Shown: positions 8,701-59,157 of the stretch, piece after piece
How the letters are laid out: every line of letters begins with the position of its first letter
Position numbering within the stretch: position 1 is the stretch's first letter
Source of the DNA: an uncultured Candidatus Saccharibacteria bacterium
GTDB lineage: Bacteria; Patescibacteriota; Minisyncoccia; Phycocordibacterales; SBAW01
Direction: 5' to 3'
Assembly (NCBI GenBank): GCA_964615415.1
Contig: CAZTNI010000001.1
Coordinates: 176,746-240,745, forward strand
Length of the DNA: 64,000 bases
Position numbers and translations under genes: made by a program
Notes under the pieces: model-generated
What the model saw: the letters and a program-made list of their open reading frames with translations, nothing else
Told to the model about the DNA's origin: nothing
Databases searched by the model: none

Positions 8701-9207
8701 CTAGTGCTCGCCGTAGCCGGAAGCATCGTCCTTGCTCGTGTAGTCGATCGTCTTCTTGAGGGTGCGAGCGTTGATCAGGAACGCGACGACGATCTGCAGG
8801 AACCAGAAGACGAGGAGTACGACGAATTCCGTCGTTCGGTACACGTTCAGAAAATCGAACCGTCCCGCCAGCATGAACAGGAAGAGGCAGAAGATCCAGA
8901 AGATCAGCATCGAGATGATCTCCCAGGTGTTGTCGATGCCGGGCTTCGAGACTCGCAGGAGTTCGAAGAGGGCCGTGCCGGCGCCAAGGACATAGATCAC
9001 TTCGACCCATGTGCCGGCGTAGGTGCCCTCCATGAATTCCGCCGTGAAGAGTATGGTCCGCATATCCGGGGCGGATACTTCGATGATGGTGTAGATGATG
9101 AGGACGACGAGTGCGTACGGAAGTCGCCGAAATAGCCTGCCTGCGACCTTGCGGAACTTGCTCGGTCGGCGCGGCCGGGTAACGGCTGCGACAGTAGCGT
9201 CAGTCAT
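8701..9207 (-). CDS. integral membrane protein (4-5 TM), unknown function
   Basis: ATG at 9205-9207 with ribosome-binding site AAGGAGAG. Hydrophobic segments such as IISMLIFWIFCLFLFMLAG. Confidence 0.6.
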   Translation of the reverse strand: MTDATVAAVTRPRRPSKFRKVAGRLFRRLPYALVVLIIYTIIEVSAPDMRTILFTAEFMEGTYAGTWVEVIYVLGAGTALFELLRVSKPGIDNTWEIISMLIFWIFCLFLFMLAGRFDFLNVYRTTEFVVLLVFWFLQIVVAFLINARTLKKTIDYTSKDDASGYGEH

Positions 9208-9287
9208 GTCTGAGCTCTCCTTGTGTGTGCGTTGCAGGCGGTATGCCTGCAGGACGTCCGTTAGGTACAGTACAGCACTAAGTGTAT

Positions 9288-9316
9288 TTGTCAAGCTCTA
9301 GCGAATCTGCTACACT
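9288..9316 (+). promoter_or_regulatory. sigma70-like promoter: TTGTCA, 17-nt spacer, extended -10 TGCTACACT
   Basis: -35 at 9288-9293, -10 TACACT at 9311-9316, 17-nt spacer. ATG at 9352 preceded by ribosome-binding site AACGGAGG. Confidence 0.6.
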
Positions 9317-18608: not shown

Positions 18609-18751
18609 GTGGATCTCCTTGGGTTGCAGTGAACAAGTCTGAAAGCAAAATACCACATTTTTGTGTAAAAGCAATATTACATCCTTCATCTACTGTTCAG
18701 TAAAGGAATCGTACAAGTAGAGTGTTCTATTTATATATAACGAACACATAT

Positions 18752-18973
18752 ATGGTTACGGTAGTTAATAACCCAGGCGGCGAGCGTGTGGTAGAAAAAA
18801 GCGACAGCAGCGGCTGGGCAGTGGCGGTTATTATTTTGATCGCGCTGGTGGCAGTAGGTGCATTCTTTGCATGGCGGTACTATCGCGCACCTGCGGCACC
18901 GGCACCAAGTGGTGCAAATATTAACGTCACGATTCCAACAGGAGGCGGGGAACAAGCAGGACCAAACGAATAG
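18752..18973 (+). CDS. small single-TM protein
   Basis: WAVAVIILIALVAVGAFFAWRYY. Weak translation-start signals. Confidence 0.3.
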   Translation: MVTVVNNPGGERVVEKSDSSGWAVAVIILIALVAVGAFFAWRYYRAPAAPAPSGANINVTIPTGGGEQAGPNE

Positions 18974-18977
18974 AAAA

Positions 18978-19019
18978 TAAAAAAACCGCGGACACGAGTG
19001 TCCGCGGCGTTTGTTTTTG
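18978..19019. terminator. bidirectional intrinsic terminator
   Basis: Hairpin CCGCGGACAC-GA-GTGTCCGCGG with A- and T-runs. Confidence 0.75.
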
Positions 19020-19030
19020 TGCTGCGCCGT

Positions 19031-19480
19031 TTAGAACGGCGATCGCTCGATAACGACGCGGCAGGCGCCGTACGGATTGCGATAGCCGGACTCGTATGCC
19101 TTCTGGAAAGCATTCTCGTTCGCCTGCCGCTGGCTCCACTGAGAGCCGGCCGTGAAGGTGCGGATCGCGTAGCCGTCGTTGCAGTAGAGGCCCGCGAGCC
19201 ACCAGTCGCGCTCGACCGATACACCATTCGCGCAGTTGTACGCATTGCGAATGTTGCACTGATAGAGCGCTTCCGTACGAGCATCTTCCTCGTAGTAGTA
19301 GCCCCATGCGTAGCCCCAGCCGTCGCCATCGCGATTCATCGAGATGGAATGCCACATCGTGGTATACCCGCCACGTTGCGCGTGTGCGGCCGGAATAATG
19401 GCCGCGAGAGAACCTACGGCCACAAGAGTCGCAATCAGAAACTTCCGCATTTCCAAGCCTCCTTTGGTTGTGGAGAACAA
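19031..19480 (-). CDS. small secreted Cys-containing protein (possibly DUF4189-like)
   Basis: Signal peptide MRKFLIATLVAVGSLAAIIPAAHA. Cys- and Trp-rich mature part. GC-rich gene. Confidence 0.5.
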   Translation of the reverse strand: MFSTTKGGLEMRKFLIATLVAVGSLAAIIPAAHAQRGGYTTMWHSISMNRDGDGWGYAWGYYYEEDARTEALYQCNIRNAYNCANGVSVERDWWLAGLYCNDGYAIRTFTAGSQWSQRQANENAFQKAYESGYRNPYGACRVVIERSPF

Positions 19481-19551
19481 GCCCTCCTACGGCAGGATCA
19501 TAGCAAGCTCAGCAGTAGCGTCAATGGGTGCAACGCACAACTCGCAAGGTT

Positions 19552-20340
19552 TTACTCTACGCTCGCCAACAAATTCAGCATCGCCGTTTGTTGTTCAAGG
19601 TGGCCATGCTGGGCTTCGACGTTGGTGTAGGGGATCCTTGCTTGCCCGGCATAGACCGAAAGCGACCCGTCATTTTTTGGCGAAGAACTCTGCTCGGCAA
19701 TGTTCATGCCTGCGGCAGCGAGCGCATCATAGACGGCTGCTTCCGTAGTAAAGAAGAAGTCGTCTTTGTCTCTGTCGGGATTTTGATTAATCCGACTCGC
19801 ATTACCTGCTTCGCTTCCTCCATCGTAATAACTTTCAATGGAGAAGTTGTTGTTTGTATTGTTGTGAAGCGCAACCAAGCGTCCTCGACGCGTTCGGAAA
19901 TTATCTATCACTCCTAGTAGGGTCTGCGCCACGCCTGCGACTGCTTGGCGTGCCTCGTCGGAATACGTCCCGCCTTGTTCTTGAAGTGTGTTCTGGATCC
20001 CTTCGTCCGTAAAGATGCGGTTCGGGTCGCACTCATAGCGGACACCGTTTAGTGTGAAGGTAATGTTCCGCGTGCCACCGTACTTTAGTTGTATCAGTGT
20101 GCCACCTCTTTCAGACAAGACCGTGTGTGCCGCTTCGACACAGGTGTTTTCCGAGTCGTGCGGCGCAAAGTAAGTGAGTCCTGGGCCATACAAAGAGACC
20201 CATACTGCAACTGCGGAGTCTCCCAGCGGTATAGCGTTTCCATACTGTGCCTGTGCGGACCCTGCTTTGGCAAACAGGCTTGCGCCTGCGAATGCTGCCG
20301 CACCGCGCAAGAAGCCGCGCTTTGTTATAAGGCCGTCCAT
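19552..20340 (-). CDS. secreted protein with a Tat-like signal peptide, unknown (hydrolase-like) function
   Basis: N-terminus TKRGFLRGAAAFAGASLFAKAGSAQA resembles a twin-arginine signal (KR variant). Confidence 0.5.
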   Translation of the reverse strand: MDGLITKRGFLRGAAAFAGASLFAKAGSAQAQYGNAIPLGDSAVAVWVSLYGPGLTYFAPHDSENTCVEAAHTVLSERGGTLIQLKYGGTRNITFTLNGVRYECDPNRIFTDEGIQNTLQEQGGTYSDEARQAVAGVAQTLLGVIDNFRTRRGRLVALHNNTNNNFSIESYYDGGSEAGNASRINQNPDRDKDDFFFTTEAAVYDALAAAGMNIAEQSSSPKNDGSLSVYAGQARIPYTNVEAQHGHLEQQTAMLNLLASVE

Positions 20341-20485
20341 GTGTTTCCCCGTGAAGATCTAAAGAAAGTCCTCGCGTAGTATACATAGATGCACACGATA
20401 TAAAAACGAGACAACACTTTACAAATTTTACAATGATGGTAATGTGTAAACAGATAAAGTAGCTACAGAACCAGAGGAGGCGTGT

Positions 20486-20860
20486 ATGAATGTGATACCG
20501 ACGAGCCTCGACGTTCTTCGGGCACAGATGTCGCAGCTTGATGCGACCATGATCCTAGTTATTTCCAGGGCGTTTGAAGGTAAGTCTGACGCAGCTATTG
20601 CAGAAACATTGTCCCCTGCGTGGGGCATAGGCGCAGGCTCTGTTGCTCGGGCATGGGAGGGAATGTTTAGGATTTTCGGACTCTCTGGAGCAACATACTC
20701 GGTAGAGCAGAAAAAGTCGCAAATCCTTGCACTGTTTGCGCGATATGCAGAGACGCTGCCACCGACGTTCCGTCCTACGCTGCTTCGCGTGAAGAAGAAA
20801 AAGAAGCAACCGCAGCAGAAAAAGTTTGCTCTCCGCGCTAGCAATAAAGTGCAGATATAA
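20486..20860 (+). CDS. hypothetical protein with a Lys-rich C-terminus
   Basis: Strong ribosome-binding site CAGAGGAGGcgtgtATG. Confidence 0.5.
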   Translation: MNVIPTSLDVLRAQMSQLDATMILVISRAFEGKSDAAIAETLSPAWGIGAGSVARAWEGMFRIFGLSGATYSVEQKKSQILALFARYAETLPPTFRPTLLRVKKKKKQPQQKKFALRASNKVQI

Positions 20861-20905
20861 AAAGCCCCGCATCCGTCAGTCGACGGAGGCGGGGTTTCTT
20901 TTTGT
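20861..20905. terminator. bidirectional intrinsic terminator
   Basis: Nested hairpin CCCCGC ... GCGGGG with T-run, between convergent genes. Confidence 0.7.
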
Positions 20906-20910
20906 GTGTG

Positions 20911-21402
20911 CTATACGGAAGTGGGAACAGATTCGCCTGCCATGATGTCACGGATTACCTTAAGCTGGTCTGCATGTAGCGTCCGTTCGTTAAATCCGCG
21001 AGCGTAGTTGCGACCCCAGAGGGGATCGTGAACTTTTAAACCAAGCGGTTCAAAAGGCCATGATGTTTTATAGCGAGGAATAAAATGTACGTGTATGTGG
21101 TGGTTGTGGCCTTCCTCATTTCCAAATTGTGCATCGTTGAGGCGAAAGTTCACATCGTATAGGACGTTGTACCCGAGCTTCCTGCAGTCCGCGATCACGT
21201 CGCTCACGATTACTTTGTAGCACTCGAGGATTGCCTTGCTGGGAAGGTTGGCTATGCTGGCCCCCTCTCCTTCGTGTGGGACGCGGTCCTTCCACCAGGC
21301 GTAGCAGCGGCCCAAGTAGGGTATCTGCTTTTCGTGTAATACGAGCGTCCAATATTTGTAGTCGCGGATGATCAGTGGCTGGTACCGTTCGCCAAGTAGC
21401 AT
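20911..21402 (-). CDS. HIT-family (histidine triad) hydrolase
   Basis: HNHHIHVHFIPR histidine-triad motif. Start chosen at the internal ATG (MLLGERYQP). Confidence 0.6.
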   Translation of the reverse strand: MLLGERYQPLIIRDYKYWTLVLHEKQIPYLGRCYAWWKDRVPHEGEGASIANLPSKAILECYKVIVSDVIADCRKLGYNVLYDVNFRLNDAQFGNEEGHNHHIHVHFIPRYKTSWPFEPLGLKVHDPLWGRNYARGFNERTLHADQLKVIRDIMAGESVPTSV

Positions 21403-21461
21403 AGTACTTTTCCTCTCTTGAGTTGCGTCTGGCTCGACTCTATATCGCTCTTGTATATATG

Positions 21462-21501
21462 TAAAGCAAAAGAAAAGCGCAGCGTTTTTAATACGCTGCG
21501 C
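21462..21501 (-). terminator. intrinsic terminator, copy 1 of a duplicated terminator sequence
   Basis: GTAAAG ... AAAAGCGCAGCGT-TTTTAAT-ACGCTGCGC. Nearly identical to 23455-23489. Confidence 0.65.
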
Positions 21502-21509
21502 TTTAGAGC

Positions 21510-21926
21510 TTATGGCTTCCAGTATTTTGGTCCATAGGTTCCGTCGGGTTTTGTCTCGAGTTGCATGATGGGGTTGCGGATGTGTGCCCAGGCGACCACC
21601 ACCGCGCAAAGGCCAACGAGGCCGCCGGGAGTAAGTAGCCAATACCTCCACGGCTCGGAGAGAAAGTGTCCCACCAATAACGCAACAATGAGATACGAGA
21701 GACACCACAGGATCACGAAGTCGCACCGCCGGCGGATCAGAGTGTTGCGCTCCTCGGCCTTGATAGCAGCGTGCAAGTAGTGGCGCGACCATGTGCGGTA
21801 TCTGCGATCACGCGCGTCGACTAAGCCTCTGATCTCTTCGTCGCGGCGTGTCACTAGTCGTTCCACCTCCTCGTCAGTCACGTTTGGAGTGAAGACAAAG
21901 TCTGGCTGTGGCTTGCGGCCGAACAT
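21510..21926 (-). CDS. membrane protein, unknown function
   Basis: 138 aa with two hydrophobic segments. Confidence 0.5.
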   Translation of the reverse strand: MFGRKPQPDFVFTPNVTDEEVERLVTRRDEEIRGLVDARDRRYRTWSRHYLHAAIKAEERNTLIRRRCDFVILWCLSYLIVALLVGHFLSEPWRYWLLTPGGLVGLCAVVVAWAHIRNPIMQLETKPDGTYGPKYWKP

Positions 21927-22000
21927 GGATGTACTCCTTTCTATATAAGAGGGCAGTTCTAAGCTTGTTATAGCAGATCTGTCAGAAAAATCACTGATGC

Positions 22001-22035
22001 GTTTGAAAAAGAAAAAGCCCCGCCAATGGCGGGGC
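22001..22035 (-). terminator. intrinsic terminator
   Basis: Hairpin GCCCCGCC-AAT-GGCGGGGC with a T-run on the minus strand. Confidence 0.7.
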
Positions 22036-22060
22036 TTGATGAATGGGGAAGATAAGGTGC

Positions 22061-22627
22061 CTAGGCGGCGACGCTTATCTTTGGCTTGGTGTGCAGCTGC
22101 AGCGCCGCGGCAAGCGCAGTGATGGCAACATGCATCTCCAGGATCTTCCAGGCGGGGAGGGTGACGAGAACATCGGAGCGACCCTCGCTCGCGTCGGCCG
22201 CGACGGTCGTGAGGCCGTCGAGTGCAACATGCGCCGCTTCGCCGTTGTAGAAGGTGTTGTCGCGACTGAGGGTCGTGTCCTTCACGTGGTTGAACAGAGC
22301 GCCCCAGTCGGTTGGCAGCGAAGCCGAGAAGACCCCCTGGCCGGCGTAGCGCTGGAAGGCGTCCACGACGATCTCATGGATGCCTCCATGCTGCCGCGAA
22401 GGCTTCCATGGCTCGGCTGATTCGACCCGGAGGTCGAACGCTGCGAGCGCCTCGGGTTCCGTCATGAAGTGCTCGGACCCCATGGCATTGAAGTTGCCAT
22501 TGTCGAGCTCGGCGTACACGACAGAATAGACCGTGAGGCCCATAAGGCCGTAGTAGCTGTCCACGGCCTCGACGTGCAGCAGGTCCCCATTGGGGAACGC
22601 GTGCTTCTTGATTTCGCGACTGGTCAC
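22061..22627 (-). CDS. hypothetical protein (GC-rich, about 62% GC)
   Basis: GTG start 6 nt after ribosome-binding site AGGAGA. Canonical promoter at 22681-22709. Confidence 0.5.
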   Translation of the reverse strand: MTSREIKKHAFPNGDLLHVEAVDSYYGLMGLTVYSVVYAELDNGNFNAMGSEHFMTEPEALAAFDLRVESAEPWKPSRQHGGIHEIVVDAFQRYAGQGVFSASLPTDWGALFNHVKDTTLSRDNTFYNGEAAHVALDGLTTVAADASEGRSDVLVTLPAWKILEMHVAITALAAALQLHTKPKISVAA

Positions 22628-22680
22628 TGCGAGTCTCCTGTTGTTGTGCGCACGGAATGTGCGCGAATCGTCCAATGTGT

Positions 22681-22709
22681 ATTATATACCATTTAAAGTG
22701 TTTTGTCAA
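22681..22709 (-). promoter_or_regulatory. canonical sigma70 promoter TTGACA - 17 nt - TATAAT (TG-extended)
   Basis: Minus strand reads TTGACAaaacactttaaaTGGTATATAAT. Confidence 0.65.
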
Positions 22710-22730
22710 GCCAAATAATGGCTTTAAATA

Positions 22731-22764
22731 TAAAAGAAAAAGCCTCGCGCTGTGTGCGCGAGGC
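22731..22764 (-). terminator. intrinsic terminator
   Basis: Hairpin GCCTCGCGC-TGTGT-GCGCGAGGC with a minus-strand T-run. Confidence 0.65.
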
Positions 22765-22771
22765 TCAATTG

Positions 22772-22972
22772 CTAGATCCGAATGCCGTTGCGGTGGCTGC
22801 GCAAGGTCTTGCGCTTGCTGTTGTAAGCGTCACGGTAGCGCCACCACTTGCGGCTCCAACTCCAAGAGTTGGGGTGGGGGAAAAAGTTCACGTCATCGAT
22901 CCGGTTCCGATAATTCTGGTTCCGGTAACGATACTGAAGATTCACCACATTCGGACTGGACTGCATGCTCAT
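22772..22972 (-). CDS. small basic W/R/N/Y-rich protein (66 aa)
   Basis: Ribosome-binding site AAGGTGA 4 nt before the ATG. Terminator immediately downstream. Confidence 0.4.
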   Translation of the reverse strand: MSMQSSPNVVNLQYRYRNQNYRNRIDDVNFFPHPNSWSWSRKWWRYRDAYNSKRKTLRSHRNGIRI

Positions 22973-23044
22973 GCATCACCTTTTGGTTGTTAAGGTATAT
23001 GCATGTGTACCTCCGTTGGTTAGAGGAAGGGAACGAACGCTCTG

Positions 23045-23392
23045 TTAACGCAGTGGTCCGACGAACGCTTTGATCTCAGAAACTTTTTCCTCGAGTCTGT
23101 CTGCTACCCATTCCAACATTTTTTCTCGAACTAGTGCGGTGGGCAAATCTTTCCCGTGGCGCCAATCGAAAAGAAAGTTGGTTACAGTTATGCCCTCGGG
23201 CAATTCTGTATTTACTGGGTTAAAGCCGCCATGGTCGATCGCTGTGGCGAGGATCACAGCAAACTCCTCGTCACTCAATGGTTGGTCCAGATGGCCTTGT
23301 AATATTGAGCGGATGACGTTTGCCTGATTCTCTAGGTACGAGAGTGTGTATACGGCGGTTAGCCATCCGTGGGATCCGTTCCGAAGAGTCAT
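23045..23392 (-). CDS. hypothetical protein
   Basis: ATG 23390-23392 preceded by ribosome-binding site AAGGA. Promoter TTGACA...TATAAT just upstream. Confidence 0.5.
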   Translation of the reverse strand: MTLRNGSHGWLTAVYTLSYLENQANVIRSILQGHLDQPLSDEEFAVILATAIDHGGFNPVNTELPEGITVTNFLFDWRHGKDLPTALVREKMLEWVADRLEEKVSEIKAFVGPLR

Positions 23393-23428
23393 GTGCAAAT
23401 CCTTGTTCGTGATAACGTCTGCGAATAG

Positions 23429-23454
23429 ATTATAACAAATAATATTTTTGTCAA
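23429..23454 (-). promoter_or_regulatory. sigma70-like promoter TTGACA - 14 nt - TATAAT
   Basis: Minus strand reads TTGACAaaaatattatttgtTATAAT. Confidence 0.45.
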
Positions 23455-23489
23455 GTAAAGAAAAAGCGCAGCGTCTTAAAACGCTGCGC
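23455..23489 (-). terminator. intrinsic terminator, copy 2 of a duplicated terminator sequence
   Basis: GTAAAGAAAAAGCGCAGCGT-CTTAAA-ACGCTGCGC. Matches 21462-21501. Confidence 0.65.
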
Positions 23490-23498
23490 ACGGGTTAT

Positions 23499-23900
23499 CT
23501 AATCTTCGGCATCTGGAATTTCACCGAAGGGTTTTCCAAAGAAGCGCTCGGTGTCCTCGATGAGTTGTTGAAATTCTCTGCTACTGCGTTGCTCGCGTGC
23601 CAAGTTTTGGTAATGGTTACCGACGGGCGGGGCACCAACACCATCTCGTAACCATTCCTCACTGCACTTCAGATGTGCGGCGCACATCTTGATGAGTGTA
23701 GGTTGAATATGAATCGGGGCTACGATAAAACCCTTTTCTTCCCATCTTGTCCATACAGATGGTAAGAAGCCTAAAGCAGCTGCGCAGCCTGCTACACGTT
23801 CCTCGCGTTGTTCGCGAGCGTAGCGCAACCGACCTTGCACGGTAGTGAGGTCAAGTCCGGGCGTCACAGTAACAATAGTTGTTAAGGGGGTGTCACTCAC
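23499..23900 (-). CDS. hypothetical protein
   Basis: GTG start 6 nt after AGGAG. The longer ORF up to 24056 is rejected because it runs into the tmRNA and its terminator. Confidence 0.45.
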   Translation of the reverse strand: MSDTPLTTIVTVTPGLDLTTVQGRLRYAREQREERVAGCAAALGFLPSVWTRWEEKGFIVAPIHIQPTLIKMCAAHLKCSEEWLRDGVGAPPVGNHYQNLAREQRSSREFQQLIEDTERFFGKPFGEIPDAED

Positions 23901-23968: not shown

Positions 23969-24006
23969 AAAGAAAAAACCGCCAAATGGCGGCTTTTCTT
24001 TTTATG
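23969..24006 (-). terminator. intrinsic terminator of ssrA
   Basis: Hairpin CCGCCAAATGGCGG followed by a T-run on the minus strand, directly after the tmRNA 3' end. Confidence 0.75.
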
Positions 24007-24380
24007 TGGAAGTGGGCGGAGTTGAACCGCCGTGCAACACAAGTCCTCGTACACATCTACAGAAGATAGACTATCTTATTTTCTTGGACTCAATCGTAAG
24101 AGATAGACAGAATAAAATTGAGCTGCAGCTTCATAGTTTCAATTACTGAGCGAAGCGGTTCTCAGTAACTAGAGCCTGAAATATAACACTCGGTCTCCAT
24201 ACTCAGACACTCTGGAGCGAATGTGATTATGCGCGCGCTGTTGCGAACGATAGATCATTCACCGAGAAATACGGTGATTTAACTGATTTTGCAGTTATGG
24301 TTTGGCACATTTTTAAGAAGGTATGCCACTTCTCTCCTGCATGTAGGAAGATAATTGTATTGTCTAAGCCTGTCACTCCC
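24007..24380 (-). ncRNA. ssrA: transfer-messenger RNA (tmRNA, SsrA)
   Basis: Minus strand 5' GGGAGUG ... GUGUACGAGGACUUGUGUUGCACGGCGGUUCAACUCCGCCCACUUCCA 3'. T-arm GGCGG-UUCAACU-CCGCC identical to the E. coli tmRNA T-loop. Acceptor pairing GGGAGUG/CACUUCC with a G3:U70 wobble (Ala identity). CCA not encoded. Lies downstream of smpB on the same strand. Candidate tag ORF GCA (nt 89) ... ends FATARA-TAA at 24227-24229. Confidence 0.8.
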
Positions 24381-24559
24381 CGAAGTAGCACAAAAGATTT
24401 CCGGGCACTAAGTCGAGCGCGACGGCGCGAGACAGAGAAATTTCTTAGCAAAGAAATTTCGGTGACCGAGAATCTTTTGTGCTACATCGGGAAGGGCCTA
24501 GAGAATAAGTGTTCAAATGTGGCGGGGAACATATACGCGTTCCCCGCAGTATGGAAAGG

Positions 24560-24937
24560 TTAGTCGTCGGGATGGAAGATGTAGTCCTCGGACCCGAGAC
24601 AGTACTCCTCGAGGTCGTCCTCCGGAGCTTCCGCTTCCGGATTGGTCGAGTCGAGAAGGCCTGCGGCGATACGGTCGAGCGGATCGAGTACTTCGTCCTC
24701 GACGAGATCGTCGTCCGGGCAGTCGTCGCACTCGTGGTGAACGCGAGCGTGCGCACCGTGGCCGTCGAAGTGCATCTCGAAGCGAGCCTCGTGGTCGTCG
24801 ATGCGAGACTCCTGCTCCGCGTGTCTCCGGAGCGTTGCCGCATGACGTTGCGCCTTGCGACGCTCCTTCTCCGCCCAGGAGAGTCTCCTGTGCGAGCGGG
24901 GTTGGTCGTCTTCTTGCGTTCCGTACTGTCCGTACAA
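24560..24937 (-). CDS. acidic Cys/His-containing small protein between smpB and ssrA (GC-rich gene)
   Basis: TTG start 5 nt after ribosome-binding site AAAGGAGGA. HHECDDCPDDD motif. About 62% GC, so several artefactual ORFs in other frames. Confidence 0.45.
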   Translation of the reverse strand: MYGQYGTQEDDQPRSHRRLSWAEKERRKAQRHAATLRRHAEQESRIDDHEARFEMHFDGHGAHARVHHECDDCPDDDLVEDEVLDPLDRIAAGLLDSTNPEAEAPEDDLEEYCLGSEDYIFHPDD

Positions 24938-24992
24938 CTTTTCCTCCTTTGGTTCTTTTCCAAATTGTGGCGCACACGCCACATTTGAACAC

Positions 24993-25436
24993 TTATTCGT
25001 TTTTCAATGTCCTGCGCATTTCGCGCTCCGTGTCCCGCTTCTTTAAGACGGCACGTTTGTCGAATGCTTTCCGACCGCGCGCGGCTGCCACGCGCAGCTT
25101 TAATACATCTCCTTTATTATACACCGAAAGTGGCACTACTGTCAAGCCTTTTTGACCCTCATATTCGGCCAGTTTTTCTATCTCCTCCTTGGTGAGGAGT
25201 AGTTTGCGGCTGCGCTCTGGGTCGTAGTCGGTTGGCGTGTTTGCTGCCTGGTAGGGTGGCACCGACATGCCTACTATATATGCTTCGCCGCCGCGTACTA
25301 TTATATGCGCGCCGTCTAATTTTCCGTTCCCTCCACGCAGCGACTTTACTTCGAAGCCAAGGAGCTCTAAGCCCGCCTCGAATTCCTCGAGGACCTCGTA
25401 GTTAAGTCGCGCTTTTTTGTTCTCTATAAGAGACAT
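24993..25436 (-). CDS. smpB: SsrA-binding protein SmpB
   Basis: MSLIENKKARLNYEVLEEFEAGLELLGFEVKSLR ... typical SmpB N-terminus. Confidence 0.95.
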   Translation of the reverse strand: MSLIENKKARLNYEVLEEFEAGLELLGFEVKSLRGGNGKLDGAHIIVRGGEAYIVGMSVPPYQAANTPTDYDPERSRKLLLTKEEIEKLAEYEGQKGLTVVPLSVYNKGDVLKLRVAAARGRKAFDKRAVLKKRDTEREMRRTLKNE

Positions 25437-27576: not shown

Positions 27577-28251
27577 TTAACGAAGAGCGAGTTGGACAGC
27601 GTCCAGGTCGTGGAGGTTGCGCGGAGGATTCTCCGCGATCTCCAGGTAGAGGTAGCTTCCGGGGATTCCCGGGCCACTCCCTGGGTCGCCGATGGGGTCG
27701 CCGCGAACGACGACCACCAGGCGGCAGCCGGTGTCGGTGCTGGCGATCGCTGCGGGCGAACGGCCGGCGTTGTAGACGACGACCGGCAGCTCGAACTCCG
27801 CCGCAACAACCGATGCCATCTGGCCGCCACCGCTGTGGGCAGTCAGGAAGACATGGTAGCCGGGGTAGGTGTCAAGCACCTCCGCAACGAAGTCTGTTGC
27901 GTGTGGCGATGCACCTCCGTGCACGAGCCGTCGGACACCTGCCACAAGCAGGTCGCCCGCGCTGAGGTTGTCGATCGCCACGACCACGGTACGGGTCGTG
28001 CTGTTGACGAACGCTGCGGCATGGAAGGCCGAGCGGTCCACCTCGAGCGTCCGCTCGAAGCCGCTCGGGGAACCCGAAGGGCCGTCGACGGCGAGAACAA
28101 ACGGCAGGAACGACCTCGCGGTCGTCAGTCGAGCGTTCTCGCTCGTGAGCGAGAAGTAGGGGCCTGCGGACGTAACTCCGCAGGTGGTGCTGGCGAGCGC
28201 CGGAGTCGCGAGTGCGACCACGGCAATAAAAGCATAGAAAAGCTTGCGCAT
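27577..28251 (-). CDS. secreted alpha/beta-hydrolase (class 3 lipase-like), very GC-rich gene
   Basis: Signal peptide MRKLFYAFIAVVALATPALA. Nucleophile-elbow-like FLTAHSGGGQMAS. About 65% GC versus about 48% background. The overlapping plus-strand ORF is regarded as an artefact. Confidence 0.55.
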   Translation of the reverse strand: MRKLFYAFIAVVALATPALASTTCGVTSAGPYFSLTSENARLTTARSFLPFVLAVDGPSGSPSGFERTLEVDRSAFHAAAFVNSTTRTVVVAIDNLSAGDLLVAGVRRLVHGGASPHATDFVAEVLDTYPGYHVFLTAHSGGGQMASVVAAEFELPVVVYNAGRSPAAIASTDTGCRLVVVVRGDPIGDPGSGPGIPGSYLYLEIAENPPRNLHDLDAVQLALR

Positions 28252-30602: not shown

Positions 30603-30630
30603 CCGGCCAGAAATGGCCGGAATTTTTTTG
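30603..30630 (+). terminator. intrinsic terminator
   Basis: Hairpin CCGGCC-AGAAAT-GGCCGG followed by AATTTTTTT. Confidence 0.7.
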
Positions 30631-30702
30631 TGGGCGCGGCAGGGATCGAACCTGCGACCAGTCGTGTATAAGACGACGGCTCTACCACTGAGCTACGCGC
30701 CC
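30631..30702 (-). tRNA. tRNA-Ile with anticodon UAU (reads AUA)
   Basis: Minus strand GGGCGCG-UA-GCUC-AGUGGUA-GAGC-C-GUCGU-CUUAUAC-ACGAC-UGGUC-GCAGG-UUCGAUC-CCUGC-CGCGCCC-A. All four stems are perfect. CCA not encoded. Confidence 0.85.
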
Positions 30703-38489: not shown

Positions 38490-38897
38490 TTATTCGGTCA
38501 AATAATTCAACTTTTGACTTATAGATGAAGAATTCTTTTTTATCTCGTGTTCCCATATCCTAATCACTTTCCATCCTTGCTTCTTTAGAAGTCTATTTAC
38601 TTTCCGATCTCTCAATTTATTATTACTTATTTTTTCTCTCCAAAATATCCTGTTGGAAGCAGGAATCAGGTTACACTTAGAGCATCCGTGCCAAAAGCAA
38701 CCATCAGTAAATATAGCAATCTTTTGTTTTGTAAATACAAAATCAGGTTTACCTATAACTGAGGAGTGTCTTTTCCAACCTTTTATCTTATTTGCTCTAA
38801 ATAATTTTATTAATGCTTCTTCTGTACTCTTGTTGCCATGTCCTTTGATGGCAGACATATTACGTGATCTTTGCAGGGGTGTGTGAACATCGGACAT
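38490..38897 (-). CDS. vsr: very-short-patch repair endonuclease Vsr
   Basis: FTDGCFWHGC motif and Vsr N-terminal region. Confidence 0.85.
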   Translation of the reverse strand: MSDVHTPLQRSRNMSAIKGHGNKSTEEALIKLFRANKIKGWKRHSSVIGKPDFVFTKQKIAIFTDGCFWHGCSKCNLIPASNRIFWREKISNNKLRDRKVNRLLKKQGWKVIRIWEHEIKKNSSSISQKLNYLTE

Positions 38898-38910: not shown

Positions 38911-40074
38911 TTAGGCAACTATTTCTTTTGCTTTTTCAATAAAGTCCTCAACTGTAAGGATAGTGAGAGGATGATTTTTCGGATACTCGTCTTGGAGTTT
39001 GCGAGGCACTACCAGTGTCACTCCTGCCTCGTGCATCTCCGTGAGTTGGTTTGACGAAATGCCAGGCTGCAGCGTGAGAATGTGTTTATTTTTTACCCGT
39101 TTGCCCTCATTCAACACCTGTCGCCATCGGTCTTTGCACGTGGTCTTTACGCCCATCACAATCAGATTTTCAGTCGGATATGATGTATCCAAATACGCTT
39201 CTTTACTTGGAAAAACAATGTCTGGTTTTCCATCAACACGCGGCTGCATCTCGTGAGGCAGATTTGCTTCGGTGAGAATACTGTCTACGTGGTTCTCAAG
39301 CGAGTGACCCGCTCTTGATTTGCGGCGGTTCATAATGCTTGCTGCCGTGTGGAGGAAGTCATCAACATCTTTGAAAAGACGACCTATTTCTGACTGGCAA
39401 ATTTGTCGCTCAACCACTTGGAATAGTCGGTATTCGGTTAAATAGTATTCAAGAAGCTTGGTATCCGCAGGTTGTTTAGCCAGCTCACTGAAACAGTGAG
39501 CGAGCATATCACGTGTTGAGTTTGAAAAGACATCTGTGCGAGGAAAGGTCTCAAGTGACTTTGCGAACTCTTGAAACTGCTTCTCCAAACACGCATCGGT
39601 ATCCTCAACTTCTGCCGCACCGTTTTTGTAAATAGCCCAGTGCTCAAAGGGCTGTACGCCCAAAGAAGCCATTATTTCCTCAATGTCATCCTCTTGGTCA
39701 AAAACATACGCGTTGAAGTGTTTGGCACTCGTAGGAACAAGCATCAGCAGATCTCCAACGGTGTCAGGTATGAGGAATGGAAAATCGCGTCCGAAGCGGG
39801 TCAGTCGGTACTCTGAACGCGTGCCCTGACCGTACCAAGTGACAACGGAGTTCGTGGTTCTTCCATCGTGCCATTCAATGTCTACATCGTGCTTTGTATT
39901 TTGCCCTTTGGTAGGAGCATTTGGGGTGTAAATCTCCCACGCAGATTTTGGTAGATAAAACCCTGCCTGATGCGCTCCTGTCGCACCTGTGTCATTCGGC
40001 GAGATGAACTTCAATAGCGCGTTTCCGTGCTGTACTGCCTCACTGATTGCTTTTTCGATAAGTGGTGACGCCAT
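38911..40074 (-). CDS. EcoRII-family type IIE restriction endonuclease
   Basis: N-terminal effector domain KFISPNDTGATGAHQAGFYLP and RFGRDFPFLIPDTVGDLLMLV align closely with EcoRII KRLSANDTGATGGHQVGLYIP / RWGRGSPLQDPENTGALTLLAF. Confidence 0.8.
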   Translation of the reverse strand: MASPLIEKAISEAVQHGNALLKFISPNDTGATGAHQAGFYLPKSAWEIYTPNAPTKGQNTKHDVDIEWHDGRTTNSVVTWYGQGTRSEYRLTRFGRDFPFLIPDTVGDLLMLVPTSAKHFNAYVFDQEDDIEEIMASLGVQPFEHWAIYKNGAAEVEDTDACLEKQFQEFAKSLETFPRTDVFSNSTRDMLAHCFSELAKQPADTKLLEYYLTEYRLFQVVERQICQSEIGRLFKDVDDFLHTAASIMNRRKSRAGHSLENHVDSILTEANLPHEMQPRVDGKPDIVFPSKEAYLDTSYPTENLIVMGVKTTCKDRWRQVLNEGKRVKNKHILTLQPGISSNQLTEMHEAGVTLVVPRKLQDEYPKNHPLTILTVEDFIEKAKEIVA

Positions 40075-40080
40075 TGTAGT

Positions 40081-41244
40081 TTATTTTGCTTTGCGTTTTG
40101 CCTTCTTTGCGAGGAAAGTTTTGACCATCTGCGCTGCCGTTGCCTCAACTGCTGGCACGACAACCGCGTTGCCAAACTGCCTGTACGCCTGTGTATCAGA
40201 TACTACTACCTTGCACTCCTTCGGGAAACCCATTAGTTTGGCGCACTCCTGTGGTGTCAGACGGCGTGGAGATTTCCTGTCTTTCTGCTCAATAAGGATT
40301 TCAGAACCGTCCTTGTAGTAACGGGCGCTCAACGTTCTGGTGATGCCGTTAGGGTCAGCGATGCCGAAGCCAAAACCGTTTCCCTTTTCCCGATGACGCT
40401 GTGCGTAGTTCTGCAAATACTGCCACAGATGGTCAGTGAGGGTATATTTTGCATCAGGTTTCTTCTCCAAAATGTCTTTGAGTTTTGCTTTGAGTGGCGG
40501 TGGTTCTGGGAACATGAAGTCAGGGTTCTCTCCAAACACCGACTTCTTGAAAGCGATGATGAAAATGCGCTCGCGGTGCTGCGGAACCCAGTGTGCAGCA
40601 TCATATACCCGCGTGAACGTCACGTAGCCGAGGTCTTTCAGCGTGTTCATTATCACGGTCCACGTCTTGCCTCCATCGTGTGACTGTAGGTTTTTTACGT
40701 TCTCCAAGAAAAGTACCGATGGCTTTTTTGCCTGAATAATCGTGGCAAGGTAGAAGAAAAGATTACCTTGATTTTTATCCTTAAAACCGTGCTCCAAACC
40801 CAAACTCTTTTTCTTTGAAACCCCTGCGAGAGAGAAGGGCTGGCAAGGAAAACCAGCAGCCAACACATCGTGATTGGGAATGTCTGCGGGCTTTACCTTT
40901 CGGATGTCACCTGCGGGCATCTCACCAAACCACGCCTTATAGGTTTTCTGGGAATACTTGTCCCATTCTGAAGTATAAACACACTCACCGCCAAGTTTCT
41001 CAAGAGCTATCCTGAATCCGCCAATCCCGGCAAAGAGGTCGATAAACGTAAAAGTAGTTGGAACATTTGGTTTGGGGAAAAGACGTTCACTTGGGAAAAG
41101 CTCTCGTTGTTGTACCTCTTTAGAGAGCTTGTTAAGCACAGTTAGTACGAACTCTTGTTGAGTCATGTTCTGTTGCTGCCGTTCTTTTTCAATCCATTTT
41201 TCAGTAGCAGTCGGTATATTCCTTACTAAAAGTTGCTTGCTCAT
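40081..41244 (-). CDS. DNA (cytosine-5) methyltransferase with an N-terminal ribbon-helix-helix-like extension
   Basis: Motif I FIDLFAGIGGF. Motif IV GFPCQPFSLAG. ENV motif. N-terminal QLLVRNIPTATEKWIEKERQQQNMTQQEFVLTVLNK matches the RHH (CopG/Arc) pattern. The only ATG is at 41242-41244. Confidence 0.85.
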   Translation of the reverse strand: MSKQLLVRNIPTATEKWIEKERQQQNMTQQEFVLTVLNKLSKEVQQRELFPSERLFPKPNVPTTFTFIDLFAGIGGFRIALEKLGGECVYTSEWDKYSQKTYKAWFGEMPAGDIRKVKPADIPNHDVLAAGFPCQPFSLAGVSKKKSLGLEHGFKDKNQGNLFFYLATIIQAKKPSVLFLENVKNLQSHDGGKTWTVIMNTLKDLGYVTFTRVYDAAHWVPQHRERIFIIAFKKSVFGENPDFMFPEPPPLKAKLKDILEKKPDAKYTLTDHLWQYLQNYAQRHREKGNGFGFGIADPNGITRTLSARYYKDGSEILIEQKDRKSPRRLTPQECAKLMGFPKECKVVVSDTQAYRQFGNAVVVPAVEATAAQMVKTFLAKKAKRKAK

Positions 41245-41336
41245 GTCTCTGTGAATATATGATAGCAAATATACCCAGCTCTGGTATAACTAGTTTTCCA
41301 CAGAACATCAAACTTAGAGGTTCAAAGTTGCCAATC

Positions 41337-43973: not shown

Positions 43974-44058
43974 GGAGAGATGGATGAGTGGTTTAAATCA
44001 ACAGTTTACTAAACTGTCGATCCGCAAGGATCCGTGGGTTCGAATCCCACTCTCTCCG
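43974..44058 (+). tRNA. Ser-like type II tRNA with an unusual anticodon loop UUACUAA (anticodon ACU)
   Basis: GGAGAGA-UG-GAU-GAGUGGUUUAA-AUC-A-ACAGU-UUACUAA-ACUGU-(16-nt variable arm GAUCC-GCAA-GGAUC)-GUGGG-UUCGAAU-CCCAC-UCUCUCC-G. All stems pair. G73 discriminator and 3-bp D-stem as in tRNA-Ser. Confidence 0.55.
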
Positions 44059-44104
44059 CATAAAGAAAGATATACGTGCCTCATCCGTCAGGTACTATAC
44101 AAAC

Positions 44105-49710: not shown

Positions 49711-49739
49711 GATTTTGTGTGGATGATATACTACTACAG

Positions 49740-50810
49740 ATGGCGCTTTCTTTCTCGTCACTCTTTTCGAAGGGTACCAAAAGTGTGTTGGGAGTAGATA
49801 TTGGAACCTCCTCTATTAAGGTCGTGCAACTCCGACGTGAGCACGGTCGTGTGGTGTTGGAAACGTATGGCGCGATTGCGCTTGGACCTTATGCAGGCCT
49901 TGAAATAGGCCGTGCAACCGCGCTCCCTGCAGAAAAAATAATCGAAGCGCTCAAAGATGTTATCCGAGAGGCGAACGTCACTACAAACGACGCAGGTATA
50001 GCAATTCCGTATGCCTCGAGCCTTATTTCGCTGGTAAAATTGCCTGCGACTGCTGAAAAACAACTTGCGCAAGTTGTGCCTATAGAGGCGCGTAAGTATA
50101 TACCCGTACCTATTAGTGAAGTACTGCTCGATTGGTTTGTAGTATCTAATTCAGGCAAAACCGCAGCAGACAAAGTTGAAGTGTTGCTTGTTGCTATCCA
50201 TAACGACACTATCGCTAAGTTTAAAAATATTGCAGCAGAGGTTGCGTTGAATGTCGCCTTCTTTGAGATAGAAGTTTTTAGTGCTGTGCGTGCTTCGCTG
50301 GACCACGGACTTGCGCCAGTTGCAGTTGTTGACCTTGGAGCTGCAACCACCAAGGTGTACATAGTGGAGCGCGGCATTATGCATGAAAGCCACATTATTA
50401 ATCGAGGTAGCCAGGACATGACCCTCGCTGCATCACGAGCGCTTAACATACCAGTGGCGCAAGCAGAAGAGAAAAAGCGACGATTTGGTTTAACCGGTAC
50501 GGACCAAAATCTTACCACTTCGCTTTCCATATCGCTCACCCCACTGCTTTCCGAATTGTCGCGCACTATTACTAATTATGAGCAGCGCACAAATCAGACT
50601 ATCGACAGTATGGTGTTGACCGGAGGAGGAGCGGGCCTCAAAGGACTGAAGGAGTTTGCGCAAGGCAAATTGCCGACCGAAGTGCGCACTGCTGACCCGT
50701 TTGCAAAGGCTCAAGCCCCGGCGTTTCTTGAAGCTATTCTTAAAGAAGCAGGACCGGAGTTTTCTGTGGCGGTAGGGTTAGCACTCCGACGTTTACAAGA
50801 ACTCGGCTAA
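49740..50810 (+). CDS. pilM: type IV pilus assembly protein PilM
   Basis: Actin-like ATPase fold. LGVDIGTSSIKVVQL. Confidence 0.85.
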   Translation: MALSFSSLFSKGTKSVLGVDIGTSSIKVVQLRREHGRVVLETYGAIALGPYAGLEIGRATALPAEKIIEALKDVIREANVTTNDAGIAIPYASSLISLVKLPATAEKQLAQVVPIEARKYIPVPISEVLLDWFVVSNSGKTAADKVEVLLVAIHNDTIAKFKNIAAEVALNVAFFEIEVFSAVRASLDHGLAPVAVVDLGAATTKVYIVERGIMHESHIINRGSQDMTLAASRALNIPVAQAEEKKRRFGLTGTDQNLTTSLSISLTPLLSELSRTITNYEQRTNQTIDSMVLTGGGAGLKGLKEFAQGKLPTEVRTADPFAKAQAPAFLEAILKEAGPEFSVAVGLALRRLQELG

Positions 50811-50883
50811 TCGGTGCACTCGCGCACAGGTGTGTTGATAGGTCGAGGAGACAAAATAATCGCGAGGTATACTACATATTGAC

Positions 50884-51543
50884 ATGGATCCTCAGGTCTC
50901 GAATTCTTTCATACCTAAAAAACCACTTGTCCCAACTCGCAGCAGCGGCAGTCTGAGCGGGCTCCTACTCCTCGTGTCAATCCTTATGTTTATGGTGTCG
51001 TTAGCCGGAGCAGGAGGTGCGTTCCTATACGAACGGTATCTTATCGGCGCTATTGCTGCGAAAGATCTGTCTTTGGAGCGCGCTCAGGCTGCATACGAGC
51101 CCGAGACTGTGCAAGCGCTTATTCGGCTCGATTCCCGCATTAACGAATCCAAATCTTTGTTAAATAAACATATTGCACCTTCGGCAATTTTTAACTTTCT
51201 CGCACTTAAAACGTTAGAAAAAGTCCAGTTAACCAGTTTTGACTATCAAGTTGATGATGGAGGGACAGCATCTCTGCAGTTGGTGGGCATTGCAGACTCT
51301 TTTTCAACACTCGCGCTGCAATCCGACGAGTTTGGTTCTACTGACGTGCTTCGTAATGTCATCTTTTCAGACATTGTGATTCAGCCTGAAAACGGAAAAG
51401 TAAGTTTTTCTGTATATGCCGATATCGACCCTGCGTCAATCGTGTACTCAAAAAATATGGAATCCCGAAGTGTGATGCCGCTGCCGGAAGAGACAGACCA
51501 AGGAACAACGACTACGCCAGTGAGTGCTCCAAATACCCAATAA
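50884..51543 (+). CDS. pilN: type IV pilus assembly protein PilN-like
   Basis: N-terminal TM then periplasmic domain. Position after pilM. AGGTATACT box 10 nt upstream. Confidence 0.65.
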   Translation: MDPQVSNSFIPKKPLVPTRSSGSLSGLLLLVSILMFMVSLAGAGGAFLYERYLIGAIAAKDLSLERAQAAYEPETVQALIRLDSRINESKSLLNKHIAPSAIFNFLALKTLEKVQLTSFDYQVDDGGTASLQLVGIADSFSTLALQSDEFGSTDVLRNVIFSDIVIQPENGKVSFSVYADIDPASIVYSKNMESRSVMPLPEETDQGTTTTPVSAPNTQ

Positions 51544-52102
51544 TATGACACGTTTTCTTTTACCACTATTGTTTCTGGGCGGTGCCGTAGCACTATTTAT
51601 GCTCTTTACTAATCCGCGGTATCAAGCGGTGCAGGTGCTCCAGAGCGAGGCTTCGGTATATGATGATGCGCTTAATAAATCACAAGAATTAAAGCGTAAG
51701 CGCGACGAATTGAATGCACGTCGCAACACGTTTGCTGCTACAGATGTGCAAAAGCTTGAAAAAATTCTTCCTGACAATGTCGACAATATTCGCCTGGTTA
51801 TCGATATTAACAATGTTGCCGCACGGCATGGACTTACGTTGAGCGACGTAACCCTGGGGAGTTTGCAAGGCGGAGCAGAAGGCCGAAGTGCAACAGCTGT
51901 GGGAGCATCTGAAGGGCGGGTAGGGTCAGTAGAGCTTGGATTTACCCTGACCGCGTCGTATGAGTCTATGGTTGGATTTTTGATCGACCTGGAGCACAGC
52001 TTGCGTCTCATTGACGTCGAGCAGCTTGGGTTTGCTGTAGAAGACCAGGGAGGATCAAACAGTGAATATACCTTTAAAATCAGAACCTATTGGCTTCACT
52101 AA
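51524..52102 (+). CDS. pilO: type IV pilus assembly protein PilO-like
   Basis: TM followed by a coiled-coil and C-terminal domain. Gene order. Confidence 0.6.
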   Translation: MLQIPNNMTRFLLPLLFLGGAVALFMLFTNPRYQAVQVLQSEASVYDDALNKSQELKRKRDELNARRNTFAATDVQKLEKILPDNVDNIRLVIDINNVAARHGLTLSDVTLGSLQGGAEGRSATAVGASEGRVGSVELGFTLTASYESMVGFLIDLEHSLRLIDVEQLGFAVEDQGGSNSEYTFKIRTYWLH

Positions 52103-52104
52103 CT

Positions 52105-52395
52105 ATGAAATTTTTTAAGATTAACAGAACATCGATCCTTGCTGGTGTACTCGTGGTCCTCGCGGTGTACGCATACTTCAACTTTTTTGGAGGAAAGGCG
52201 GGAAGCGCTCCGACAACAACGCCATCACCGGTGTCACAAGATTTACTTCTGTCGCTTACCACACTGAGTATGATTCAACTCAATCCTGATATCTTTACTG
52301 ACCCGGTATTTCTTTCTTTGTCTGACTTTGGAGTGCAAATTCCGCCCGAGGTGGTTGGTCGTCGCAACCCATTTGCTCCTGTAGGGAGACAATAA
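52105..52395 (+). CDS. small single-TM protein in the pilus operon (PilP-like position)
   Basis: MKFFKINRTSILAGVLVVLAVYAYF. Confidence 0.4.
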   Translation: MKFFKINRTSILAGVLVVLAVYAYFNFFGGKAGSAPTTTPSPVSQDLLLSLTTLSMIQLNPDIFTDPVFLSLSDFGVQIPPEVVGRRNPFAPVGRQ

Positions 52396-52404
52396 CCATG
52401 AACT

Positions 52405-54291: not shown

Positions 54292-54292
54292 T

Positions 54293-55354: not shown

Positions 55355-55359
55355 CATGT

Positions 55360-56571: not shown

Positions 56572-56684
56572 TCTCTGGTGCCGTTGTCCACAGCGGTCTC
56601 TTATGGCTTGAGTGGAAGTCTGTATACTTTGAGTAGCTACGAATTTTATTAATTAGTATTTAGTAGCACAAATAACGGTATATT

Positions 56685-57140: not shown

Positions 57141-57165
57141 TCTTTTTCTCTAGCAGTGGTCCTAG

Positions 57166-57196: not shown

Positions 57197-57215
57197 GTGA
57201 GGTATACTGAGCACT

Positions 57216-59154: not shown

Positions 59155-59157
59155 TAT

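Follow-up and report, generated by a model that had tools for sequence, protein, structure and literature searches.

Between smpB and ssrA, the gene for transfer-messenger RNA (tmRNA), lies a small insert that is the subject of this report. It was found in a stretch of 64,000 nucleotides, termed the window in what follows; positions without a locus label refer to that stretch, and related loci are labelled L001 onwards. The insert, here called a cassette, carries one gene, is bounded by a 22-nt perfect inverted repeat, and occupies a slot that most relatives leave empty and a minority fill with other small genes behind similar ends. All features of the locus are on the minus strand and run as follows, from upstream to downstream:

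24993–25436, minus: smpB coding sequence, from the list of open reading frames (ORFs); Pfam SmpB, E = 7.7e-47
25116–25145, minus: sigma-70-type promoter match TTGACA-18-TATAAT inside smpB, 12/12 consensus; predicted start about 25109
24503–24998, minus: entire cassette including both arms, 496 bp, by comparison with an empty site
24977–24998, minus: 5′ arm of the cassette, GAATAAGTGTTCAAATGTGGCG, 22/22 complementary to 24503–24524
24942–24950, minus: ribosome-binding site (RBS) AAAGGAGGA, 4 nt before the TTG start
24935–24937, minus: TTG start codon, read directly
24560–24937, minus: cassette ORF, 125 aa, recognised by periodic GC, homologues and the ratio of nonsynonymous to synonymous change (dN/dS)
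24522–24547, minus: GC-rich hairpin GCGGGGAAC-GCGTATAT-GTTCCCCGC, no U-tract; read directly and in minimum free energy (MFE) and centroid folds
24503–24524, minus: 3′ arm, CGCCACATTTGAACACTTATTC, a 22-nt perfect inverted repeat with the 5′ arm
24381–24502, minus: native pre-tmRNA leader, outside the insert, with a long hairpin (arms 24462–24494 and 24376–24408)
24004–24380, minus: ssrA (ARAGORN; Rfam RF00023, 100.8 bits, full length; lower end 24004 in Rfam and 24006 in ARAGORN), with tag peptide AKSVKSPYFSVNDLSFATARA (ARAGORN)

The insert and its gene

The spacer between smpB and ssrA in the window is 612 nt long. An earlier sequence-only reading had placed the two genes correctly, with facing ends at 24993 and 24380, and its description of what lies between them, a very acidic 125-aa protein containing HHECDDCPDDD and started by TTG after a perfect RBS, proved right in each part; it had not given the bounds of the insert, which are the 22-nt inverted repeat and the terminal hairpin. 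The region is base-for-base identical in contigs from three other sequencing runs, so the smpB–insert–ssrA arrangement is no assembly artefact. The window SmpB is 66–77% identical to SmpB proteins from Adlerbacteria/Parcubacteria metagenome-assembled genomes, an identity that places the host organism among Candidatus Adlerbacteria / Parcubacteria, in the Candidate Phyla Radiation (CPR).

The ends of the cassette were mapped against an empty site. In the comparator L038, which has almost the same tag peptide as the window, AAAAACGAATAG and TTTAGGCCGTCCCGATG meet at the insertion point; the window at the equivalent site has AAAAACGAATAA, then 496 bp, then TCTAGGCCCTTCCCGATG. A cassette-free allele of the window would read AAAAACGAATAA joined directly to TCTAGGCCC. 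The last smpB codon and the stop (GAA TAA) fall inside the 5′ arm, which is homologous to ACGAGTGCCnAAAnGTGGCA in other cassettes. No further copy of the arm sequence occurs in the 64-kb window, where the chance expectation is 0. The hairpin begins 13 nt past the stop codon of the cassette ORF and directly abuts the 3′ arm, with an overlap of 3 nt.

The insert differs in composition from its neighbours. The cassette ORF has 63% GC, and 200-nt windows over 24600–24899 reach 64.5–67%, against 52% for smpB and 42–47% for the tmRNA region. The jump described earlier (about 62% against about 48%) is thus present at somewhat different values, and the complete spacer has only 57% GC because its final ∼120 nt are ordinary tmRNA-leader DNA. 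GC by codon position in the ORF is strongly periodic (0.75/0.38/0.75), and GC at third codon positions (GC3) is 0.75, compared with 0.40–0.57 in most window genes, a codon composition atypical for the genome. About seven further window ORFs match this GC3 richness.

Five of the six frames are open across the ORF in the window, owing to its high GC; in homologues the called frame alone is always open. Between the window and L118 (first 47 codons) dN/dS is 0.28; the L040–L117 and L070–L127 comparisons give 0.14 and 0.27, so cassette ORFs are under purifying selection. These ratios, together with the single frame open in all homologues, show the gene to be real and under selection.

The protein has few relatives. 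A word-indexed search of 5.8 billion proteins returned the window protein itself as sole match, and phmmer, run exhaustively against 1.84 billion representatives, gave three homologues (E 7e-16 to 7.5e-5): P0007, P0008 and P0009, with 57, 46 and 43% identity, all of them encoded in the same smpB–ssrA slot. The window protein has an isoelectric point (pI) of 4.6, with 35 acidic (D+E) and 14 basic (K+R) residues, and is laid out as a basic helical N-terminal half, a His/Cys motif DDHxARFxxxFDGHG..H..CxxCPDD and a very acidic C-terminal half (pI 4.05). Its homologues keep this basic-to-acidic polarity and share with it an LYGxY start, a basic helix LSxxEKxRR..., the motif DDHxARFxxxxDGHGxxA(R/K)xH...C(x1-2)CPDDE and an acidic tail. 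The GGAGG and TTG arrangement is kept in L118 and L119, and in L121 the start is GTG. The His/Cys knuckle probably binds metal. Weaker versions of the motifs, LSxxEKxRR with DDHxxR(F/V), occur in the L004/L042 and L047 cargoes, and a C-terminal P(L/I)DK(I/L)F peptide is common to those of L017, L040/L117 and L070.

The window ORF is a mosaic with respect to L118: the first ∼150 nt are ∼90% identical, the remainder (two-thirds) only ∼45%, and identity is then 100% from the last three codons onwards. The last block extends over ∼75 nt (last three codons, 3′ untranslated region, hairpin, 3′ arm and 6 nt more), while the two tmRNAs are only ∼88% identical. By eye, the His/Cys region of the window protein is much closer to that of L119 than to that of L118. 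On these alignments the cassette gene is fast-evolving and mosaic. A diversity-generating retroelement acting on the hypervariable 3′ two-thirds was considered and rejected: divergence there is total and not adenine-specific, and there is no template repeat or reverse transcriptase.

A match to a known housekeeping family would have told against the sequence-only reading; the protein matched no such family in Pfam, NCBIfam, PHROGs, PADLOC or PDB sequences, nor any other. An HNH or zinc-finger identity was rejected, with only a sub-threshold Pfam match (zf-BED, E = 0.11, to the L117 protein) and nothing from a profile search against PDB sequences; a role in defence or anti-defence was likewise set aside as a specific assignment, PADLOC giving no match. 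Cassette proteins are mostly predicted to be disordered, and the AlphaFold model of the window protein is confident only for helix 21–42. At the level of type, the cargo proteins may be listed as candidate host-interaction, anti-defence or translation-quality-control modulators.

Cassettes in the same slot of related genomes

Related loci were collected by SmpB similarity (33 genome loci and 80 metagenome loci), and protein searches added further cassette loci (L117, L118, L119, L120–124 and L127–129). In the 85 Parcubacteria loci with both genes visible, the distance from the smpB stop to the tmRNA has a median of 75 nt (quartiles 40–129); the closest comparators of the window have 54–78 nt. 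Spacers of 201 to 359 nt are absent, and longer ones occur at nine loci. The long spacers form two classes.

Class 1 consists of the window, L004, L017, L040 and L070, with L042 and L047 at contig ends. The layout is 5′ arm, RBS, ORF, hairpin and 3′ arm, beginning 0–12 nt past the smpB stop. With the added loci (the full set outside the window being L004, L017, L040, L042, L047, L070, L110, L117, L118, L119, L120–124 and L127–129), this layout, the slot and the operon strand are common to at least 14 cassettes from about 11 related lineages. Every one lies in the same orientation, including those seen in independent assemblies (window, L001–3, L120–124 and L127–129). Cassettes measure 230–760 bp, with arms of 18–24 nt that flank the ORF at 188–719 nt from each other, and every cassette other than that of the window also has a hairpin at the same position, of different sequence. 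Behind these homologous ends the cargo differs: the DDH/Cys family, a CxxC..H..H protein, PLDKIF-ended proteins and membrane peptides. GC3 exceeds that of the host smpB in 10 of 12 cassettes.

One locus, L110 (940–1791), carries three tandem cassettes after smpB, each with its own arm pair:

L110, 950–968 and 1169–1190: arms of the first cassette
L110, 1240–1259 and 1448–1467: arms of the second cassette
L110, 1483–1502 and 1756–1774: arms of the third cassette

Their cargoes, of 45, ∼43 and 65 aa, are mutually unrelated: two membrane peptides (43–45 aa) and a basic 65-aa protein. Between cassettes 1 and 2 lies a diverged copy, ∼45 nt long, of the smpB 3′ end, spacer and 5′ arm.

The ends are conserved and covary. 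Aligned 5′ arms read ACGAG(T/C)G-N7-GTGG(CA) and 3′ arms (C)CCAC-N7-C(A/G)CTCGT, so that an outer box (ACGAG) and an inner box (GTGGCA) are conserved and the centre varies in both arms together. Over 11 cassettes, 93% of the arm-to-arm cells are standard pairs and 16 of 20 pairs show double-sided changes; slid controls gave 36–47%, and none of 500 shuffles was as high. Internal mismatches, read on the sense strand, are G.U in 11 cells and non-pairs in 4, an excess that is no more than suggestive of a stem at the RNA level. Between L040 and L117 the ends are nearly unchanged at dS 0.74, with synonymous sites near saturation. The end motif ACGAGYG-N7-GTGG is confined to the smpB–ssrA slot among 126 loci and occurs nowhere else in the 64-kb window, and no cassette copy was found outside the slot in 713 kb of related DNA. 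No consistent direct repeat lies beside the arms as a target-site duplication would, in A-rich flanks that preclude judgement of short duplications.

Cassettes are present in a minority of related genomes, and in a neighbour-joining tree of SmpB their loci are scattered, each with an empty nearest relative. At 87% SmpB identity, L004 pairs with L041 (60-nt spacer) and L040 with L039 (54 nt). The 63 empty spacers contain no more end remnants than shuffled sequence does. This scatter and the clean empty sites favour, without proving it, a history in which cassettes were gained repeatedly at a fixed site rather than one of many clean losses. The sequence-only reading had seen in the compositional jump a hint of captured foreign DNA, a view that a like gene of matching composition in the same place in relatives would contradict. 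The outcome is divided: L118, L119 and L120–124 carry a homologous GC3-rich gene there, and most relatives carry nothing. What stands is an accessory insert that most relatives lack; a one-off anonymous capture gives way to a bounded, recurrent cassette family, and no donor was found.

Two other leads on origin were dropped. A ‘fossil smpB end’ in L047, considered as evidence of transfer, is better read as a small insertion making a premature smpB stop. For a phage origin, a scan of viral contigs for the end motif gave two matches in unrelated coding sequence, judged to be chance, and PHROGs gave no match.

In class 2 the same slot holds a ∼87-aa GIY-YIG nuclease ORF, with Pfam E values of 1e-13 to 1e-16 for four of the five:

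L018, 4451–4714: GIY-YIG ORF
L064, 3552–3716: GIY-YIG ORF
L095, 2975–3235: GIY-YIG ORF
L108, 696–959: GIY-YIG ORF
L093, just past smpB: GIY-YIG ORF

The ORF seemingly sits within the loop of the native leader hairpin in L108 and L093, and within a 24/28 inverted repeat in L018.

A probable smpB-internal promoter and the tmRNA leader

The promoter match inside smpB coincides with a conserved stretch of the protein. Its hexamers are the Leu-Thr and Tyr-Asn codons of the SmpB motif GLT(I/V)VPLSVYNKG, and related smpB genes keep them exactly in 83 of 95 cases (TTGACA) and 67 of 95 (TATAAT); elsewhere in the same genes Leu is encoded by TTG in only ∼23% of cases and Thr by ACA in ∼22%. The promoter thus appears, on codon use, to constrain synonymous sites of smpB, and would be a clean, testable case of a regulatory signal constraining codon choice. 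No second good promoter match lies between it and ssrA, and most simply it would serve ssrA and everything between. Each cassette is downstream of this promoter and upstream of ssrA, shares their strand, and has an RBS but no promoter of its own. With the promoter upstream of it, the cassette probably forms a transcribed part of the pre-tmRNA leader. Transcription together with smpB and ssrA, raised as possible in the sequence-only reading, now seems the most plausible route of expression.

The native part of the leader forms a hairpin from a 33-nt inverted repeat, 85% complementary, whose 3′ strand includes the first tmRNA bases; equivalent leader hairpins are found in almost all relatives. 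The predicted leader RNA of 734 nt has a fold z-score of −9.2, and both its MFE and its centroid fold contain the arm–arm stem and two hairpins, the one that abuts the 3′ arm and that of the native leader. Rfam searches (gathering threshold; E ≤ 10) returned tmRNA only, plus a spurious mir-172 match on the leader hairpin. A tRNA-like mimic for RNase P, built from stem and hairpin, was considered and rejected: the hairpin stems are 9–18 bp long and there is no T-loop motif.

The leader core of the window is homologous to the L009/L053 spacer: the loop core, ∼65 nt within 24395–24480 (two GAAATTTC palindromes and CTCGCGCCGTCGCGC), has a close match in the same orientation at L009:4485–4570 and in L053, and L040:3815–3905 carries ∼45 nt of it the other way round. 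The core could represent a small element that is invertible or borne by a palindrome. Between relatives with cassettes and tmRNAs 88–100% identical, the leader hairpins beside the tmRNA have wholly different sequences (24381–24502 against L118:490–615; L070:1286–1342 against L127/L129); such divergent hairpins conserve only their shape and the pairing with the tmRNA 5′ GGGG.

Origin, expression and likeness to known systems

The reading we favour, with a probability of about 0.5, is that the insert belongs to a family of promoterless small-gene cassettes that occupy, in some Parcubacteria, a single slot past the smpB stop and before the native tmRNA leader. The family is previously undescribed: a literature search found no description of such a smpB–ssrA arrangement. 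Transcription would reach the cassette both as read-through from the promoter of smpB and from the strong smpB-internal promoter that otherwise serves ssrA, making the cassette part of the pre-tmRNA leader. In the transcript the arms would pair as a 20–22-bp stem stacked on the terminal hairpin, closing the cassette off as a separate domain and holding the smpB 3′ end beside the native leader. This stem probably offers a site for a double-strand-specific RNase of the RNase III type, which would release a stem-protected cassette mRNA, with RNase P maturing the tmRNA alongside. At the DNA level, cassettes would be gained, lost, stacked and partly exchanged, probably by recombination through their conserved ends and the smpB and ssrA flanks; there are type IV pilus genes in the window, so that DNA uptake and recombination through these sequences are conceivable.

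Several points weigh against this reading. Transcription of the cassette, formation of the stem and its cleavage are all inferred. The arm covariation is equally expected for terminal inverted repeats (TIRs) bound by a transposase or for a stem in single-stranded DNA, and the G.U bias of 11 against 4 is weak, the sequences being non-independent. No gene for RNase III (rnc) was seen in the smpB neighbourhoods, which are a small part of any genome, and no recombinase, integrase or transposase among the 30 window ORFs or the called genes of the locus flanks. The tandem array was found once only, on a 1.8-kb contig. Finally, neither the window protein nor other class-1 cargo has a recognisable domain in the five collections named above, and the structure model of the window protein is poor (pLDDT 55.7).

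If the favoured reading is confirmed, the precursor of an essential stable RNA doubles as an expression platform for exchangeable accessory genes, and a simple closing stem may make such insertion tolerable. In a bolder form, which we put forward only tentatively, these ‘tmRNA-leader cassettes’ would make up a structure-defined, locus-specific, integron-like CPR system without a linked integrase: small genes would be captured, stacked and exchanged, expressed from the promoter within smpB, and cut out of the precursor by way of the conserved arm–arm stem, their ends being recognised as an RNA or single-stranded DNA fold by some enzyme. If true, this would add a cassette system with structure-conserved ends and no linked recombinase to the routes by which bacteria shuffle small genes, and would put it in the CPR/Patescibacteria, genome-reduced bacteria whose accessory gene flow is little understood.

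Known systems share some of these features, the nearest in manner of working being integron cassettes and safe-harbour insertions of the kind made by Tn7 at glmS. Like integron cassettes, those described here are promoterless small ORFs of mostly unknown function, in one orientation behind a fixed upstream promoter (Pc in integrons) and stackable in arrays, with boundaries conserved in structure and in short terminal boxes and variable between them. Unlike attC, a compact palindrome 3′ of the ORF with RYYYAAC/GTTRRRY cores, the arms enclose the ORF and read ACGAG...GTGG / CCAC...CTCGT, with no GTTRRRY. Also unlike the situation in integrons, the cassettes sit in the leader of a gene for a stable RNA, there is no intI or other recombinase Pfam match in the locus flanks or the 30 window ORFs, and no attI is nearby. 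An attC-like parse that joins a 3′ arm to the 5′ arm of the next cassette was rejected, as single cassettes have no second 5′ arm after them. In the DNA surveyed the insert lacks the attC cores and intI that define an integron; it equally lacks the dispersed copies of a miniature inverted-repeat transposable element (MITE), the two orientations and invertase of an inverton, and the nuclease domain of a homing gene.

The arm–arm stem resembles the RNase III stems that flank 16S and 23S rRNA and the hairpins between phage T7 early genes, in that a predicted duplex of at least 20 bp, with compensatory changes, encloses a unit within a longer stable-RNA precursor. A duplex of about 20 bp with compensatory change is what such a stem calls for, and the promoter would supply the single transcript. 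It is unlike them in that the enclosed unit is the mRNA of an accessory protein and the host transcript a pre-tmRNA, with cleavage here an inferred step. Rescue factors such as ArfA and BrfA resemble the cargo in being small, lineage-specific, fast-evolving and linked to trans-translation, with a hairpin near the 3′ end of the gene. In contrast to them, the window protein has an acidic rather than a basic C-terminus and shows no sequence similarity, and no non-stop mRNA would arise, since the cassette hairpin follows the stop codon.

The main rival, which we regard as unlikely and which is compatible with expression from the leader, is a non-autonomous DNA transposon: the arms would be TIRs for a distant enzyme targeting the site after smpB, as Tn7 does at glmS, and pairing in RNA would be incidental. 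The conserved outer and inner boxes with a centre changing jointly in both arms, the patchy distribution with empty sister lineages, the unrelated cargo behind the same ends, the tandem array and the empty sites free of end remnants all speak for it, as does the complete identity of the window and L118 3′ ends despite a tmRNA difference of ∼12%. Against it, neither the 30 window ORFs nor any locus flank showed a transposase or recombinase; no consistent target-site duplication was seen; no copy lies beyond this slot in the related DNA surveyed; and the strict same-strand orientation, with an RBS and without a promoter, fits operon expression. Insertion a few bases past the stop of a highly conserved essential gene, which is left intact, is shared with Tn7 at attTn7. 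Unlike Tn7, cassettes of 230–760 bp have no transposition genes, no TGT/ACA ends and no evident 5-bp duplication. Like MITEs and other non-autonomous TIR elements they are short, have terminal inverted repeats and encode no transposase; unlike MITEs, each carries a selected and probably expressed ORF, stands at one locus rather than being dispersed within the DNA surveyed, and has no evident target duplication.

Rather improbable, in our estimate, is vertical descent: an old third gene of the smpB–ssrA operon, evolving very fast and mostly deleted, with the arms as an RNA-processing stem. Weak motifs do link most cargoes, LSxxEKxRR and DDHxxR(F/V) joining the window, L118–L121, L004/L042 and L047, and a PLDKIF-like C-terminus joining L017, L040/L117 and L070; position, strand and layout are invariant; and inverted repeats make the DNA between them liable to deletion. 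Against this, the cassette lineages are scattered on the SmpB tree, each with an empty nearest relative, so that many independent clean losses are needed. The 63 empty spacers without end remnants, the three cassettes of L110 with unrelated cargo (two of them membrane peptides), the cassette GC3 above that of the host smpB in 10 of 12 cases and the mosaic relation of window and L118 also fit descent poorly.

A degenerate free-standing homing-endonuclease gene, selfish and cutting cassette-free smpB–ssrA alleles, is a far weaker proposal. GIY-YIG ORFs of ∼87 aa occupy the same slot in five other lineages (L018, L064, L093, L095 and L108), patchiness between two highly conserved genes fits a homing cycle, as with free-standing homing genes and small CPR GIY-YIG ORFs, and the His/Cys motifs (CxxCDH..P..GG in L040; DH...GHG...H..CxxC in the window) by eye loosely recall HNH-type sites. 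Unlike homing genes, the window protein and class-1 cargo have no detectable nuclease domain, with no match to HNH or another nuclease in Pfam, NCBIfam, PHROGs, PADLOC or PDB sequences; some cargoes are membrane peptides of 43–45 aa; and the proteins are under purifying selection yet mostly predicted to be disordered. Conserved paired ends are not a homing-gene feature either; to our knowledge homing genes do not require conserved inverted-repeat ends.

Least credible of all is a one-off chance capture of foreign GC-rich DNA or an inverton bounded by the repeat, the former suggested by the compositional jump and the latter by a perfect inverted repeat of inverton-like size around a 452-bp segment, as the cassette family recurs at the same site with conserved ends, all 14 or more cassettes and the independent assemblies have a single orientation, and no invertase was found in the window or the locus flanks.

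The cassettes, lying upstream of ssrA, are also unlike genomic islands at the ssrA 3′ end. Downstream of the ssrA 3′ end in the window there is a run of about nine ORFs without Pfam match (18700–23900), where L127–129 carry Fic and HTH_17 genes in the equivalent region; the run could represent an island at the site in ssrA classically used for integration.

Other features of the window were noted in passing. Four of the GC3-rich ORFs (GC3 0.73–0.81) are near the locus on the minus strand, at 22061–22675, 27577–28251, 19031–19480 and 8701–9294; two have no Pfam match, one has a sub-threshold match to Lipase_3 (E = 0.0016) and one is DUF4189. Scattered as they are, they point to the presence in this genome of several accessory genes with atypical composition. 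At 38911–41268 and 38490–38897, a pair encoding an EcoRII-type restriction endonuclease and a C-5 cytosine methyltransferase adjoins an ORF of 34% GC. ARAGORN reports a tRNA-Ser with the unusual anticodon ACT (43974–44059) and a tRNA-Ile with anticodon TAT (30630–30702), the latter also found near smpB in many relatives. The type IV pilus genes form a cluster at 49719–60286, comprising PilM, a PilO-like protein, a T2SSE ATPase, T2SSF, a prepilin peptidase and an N-methyl pilin.

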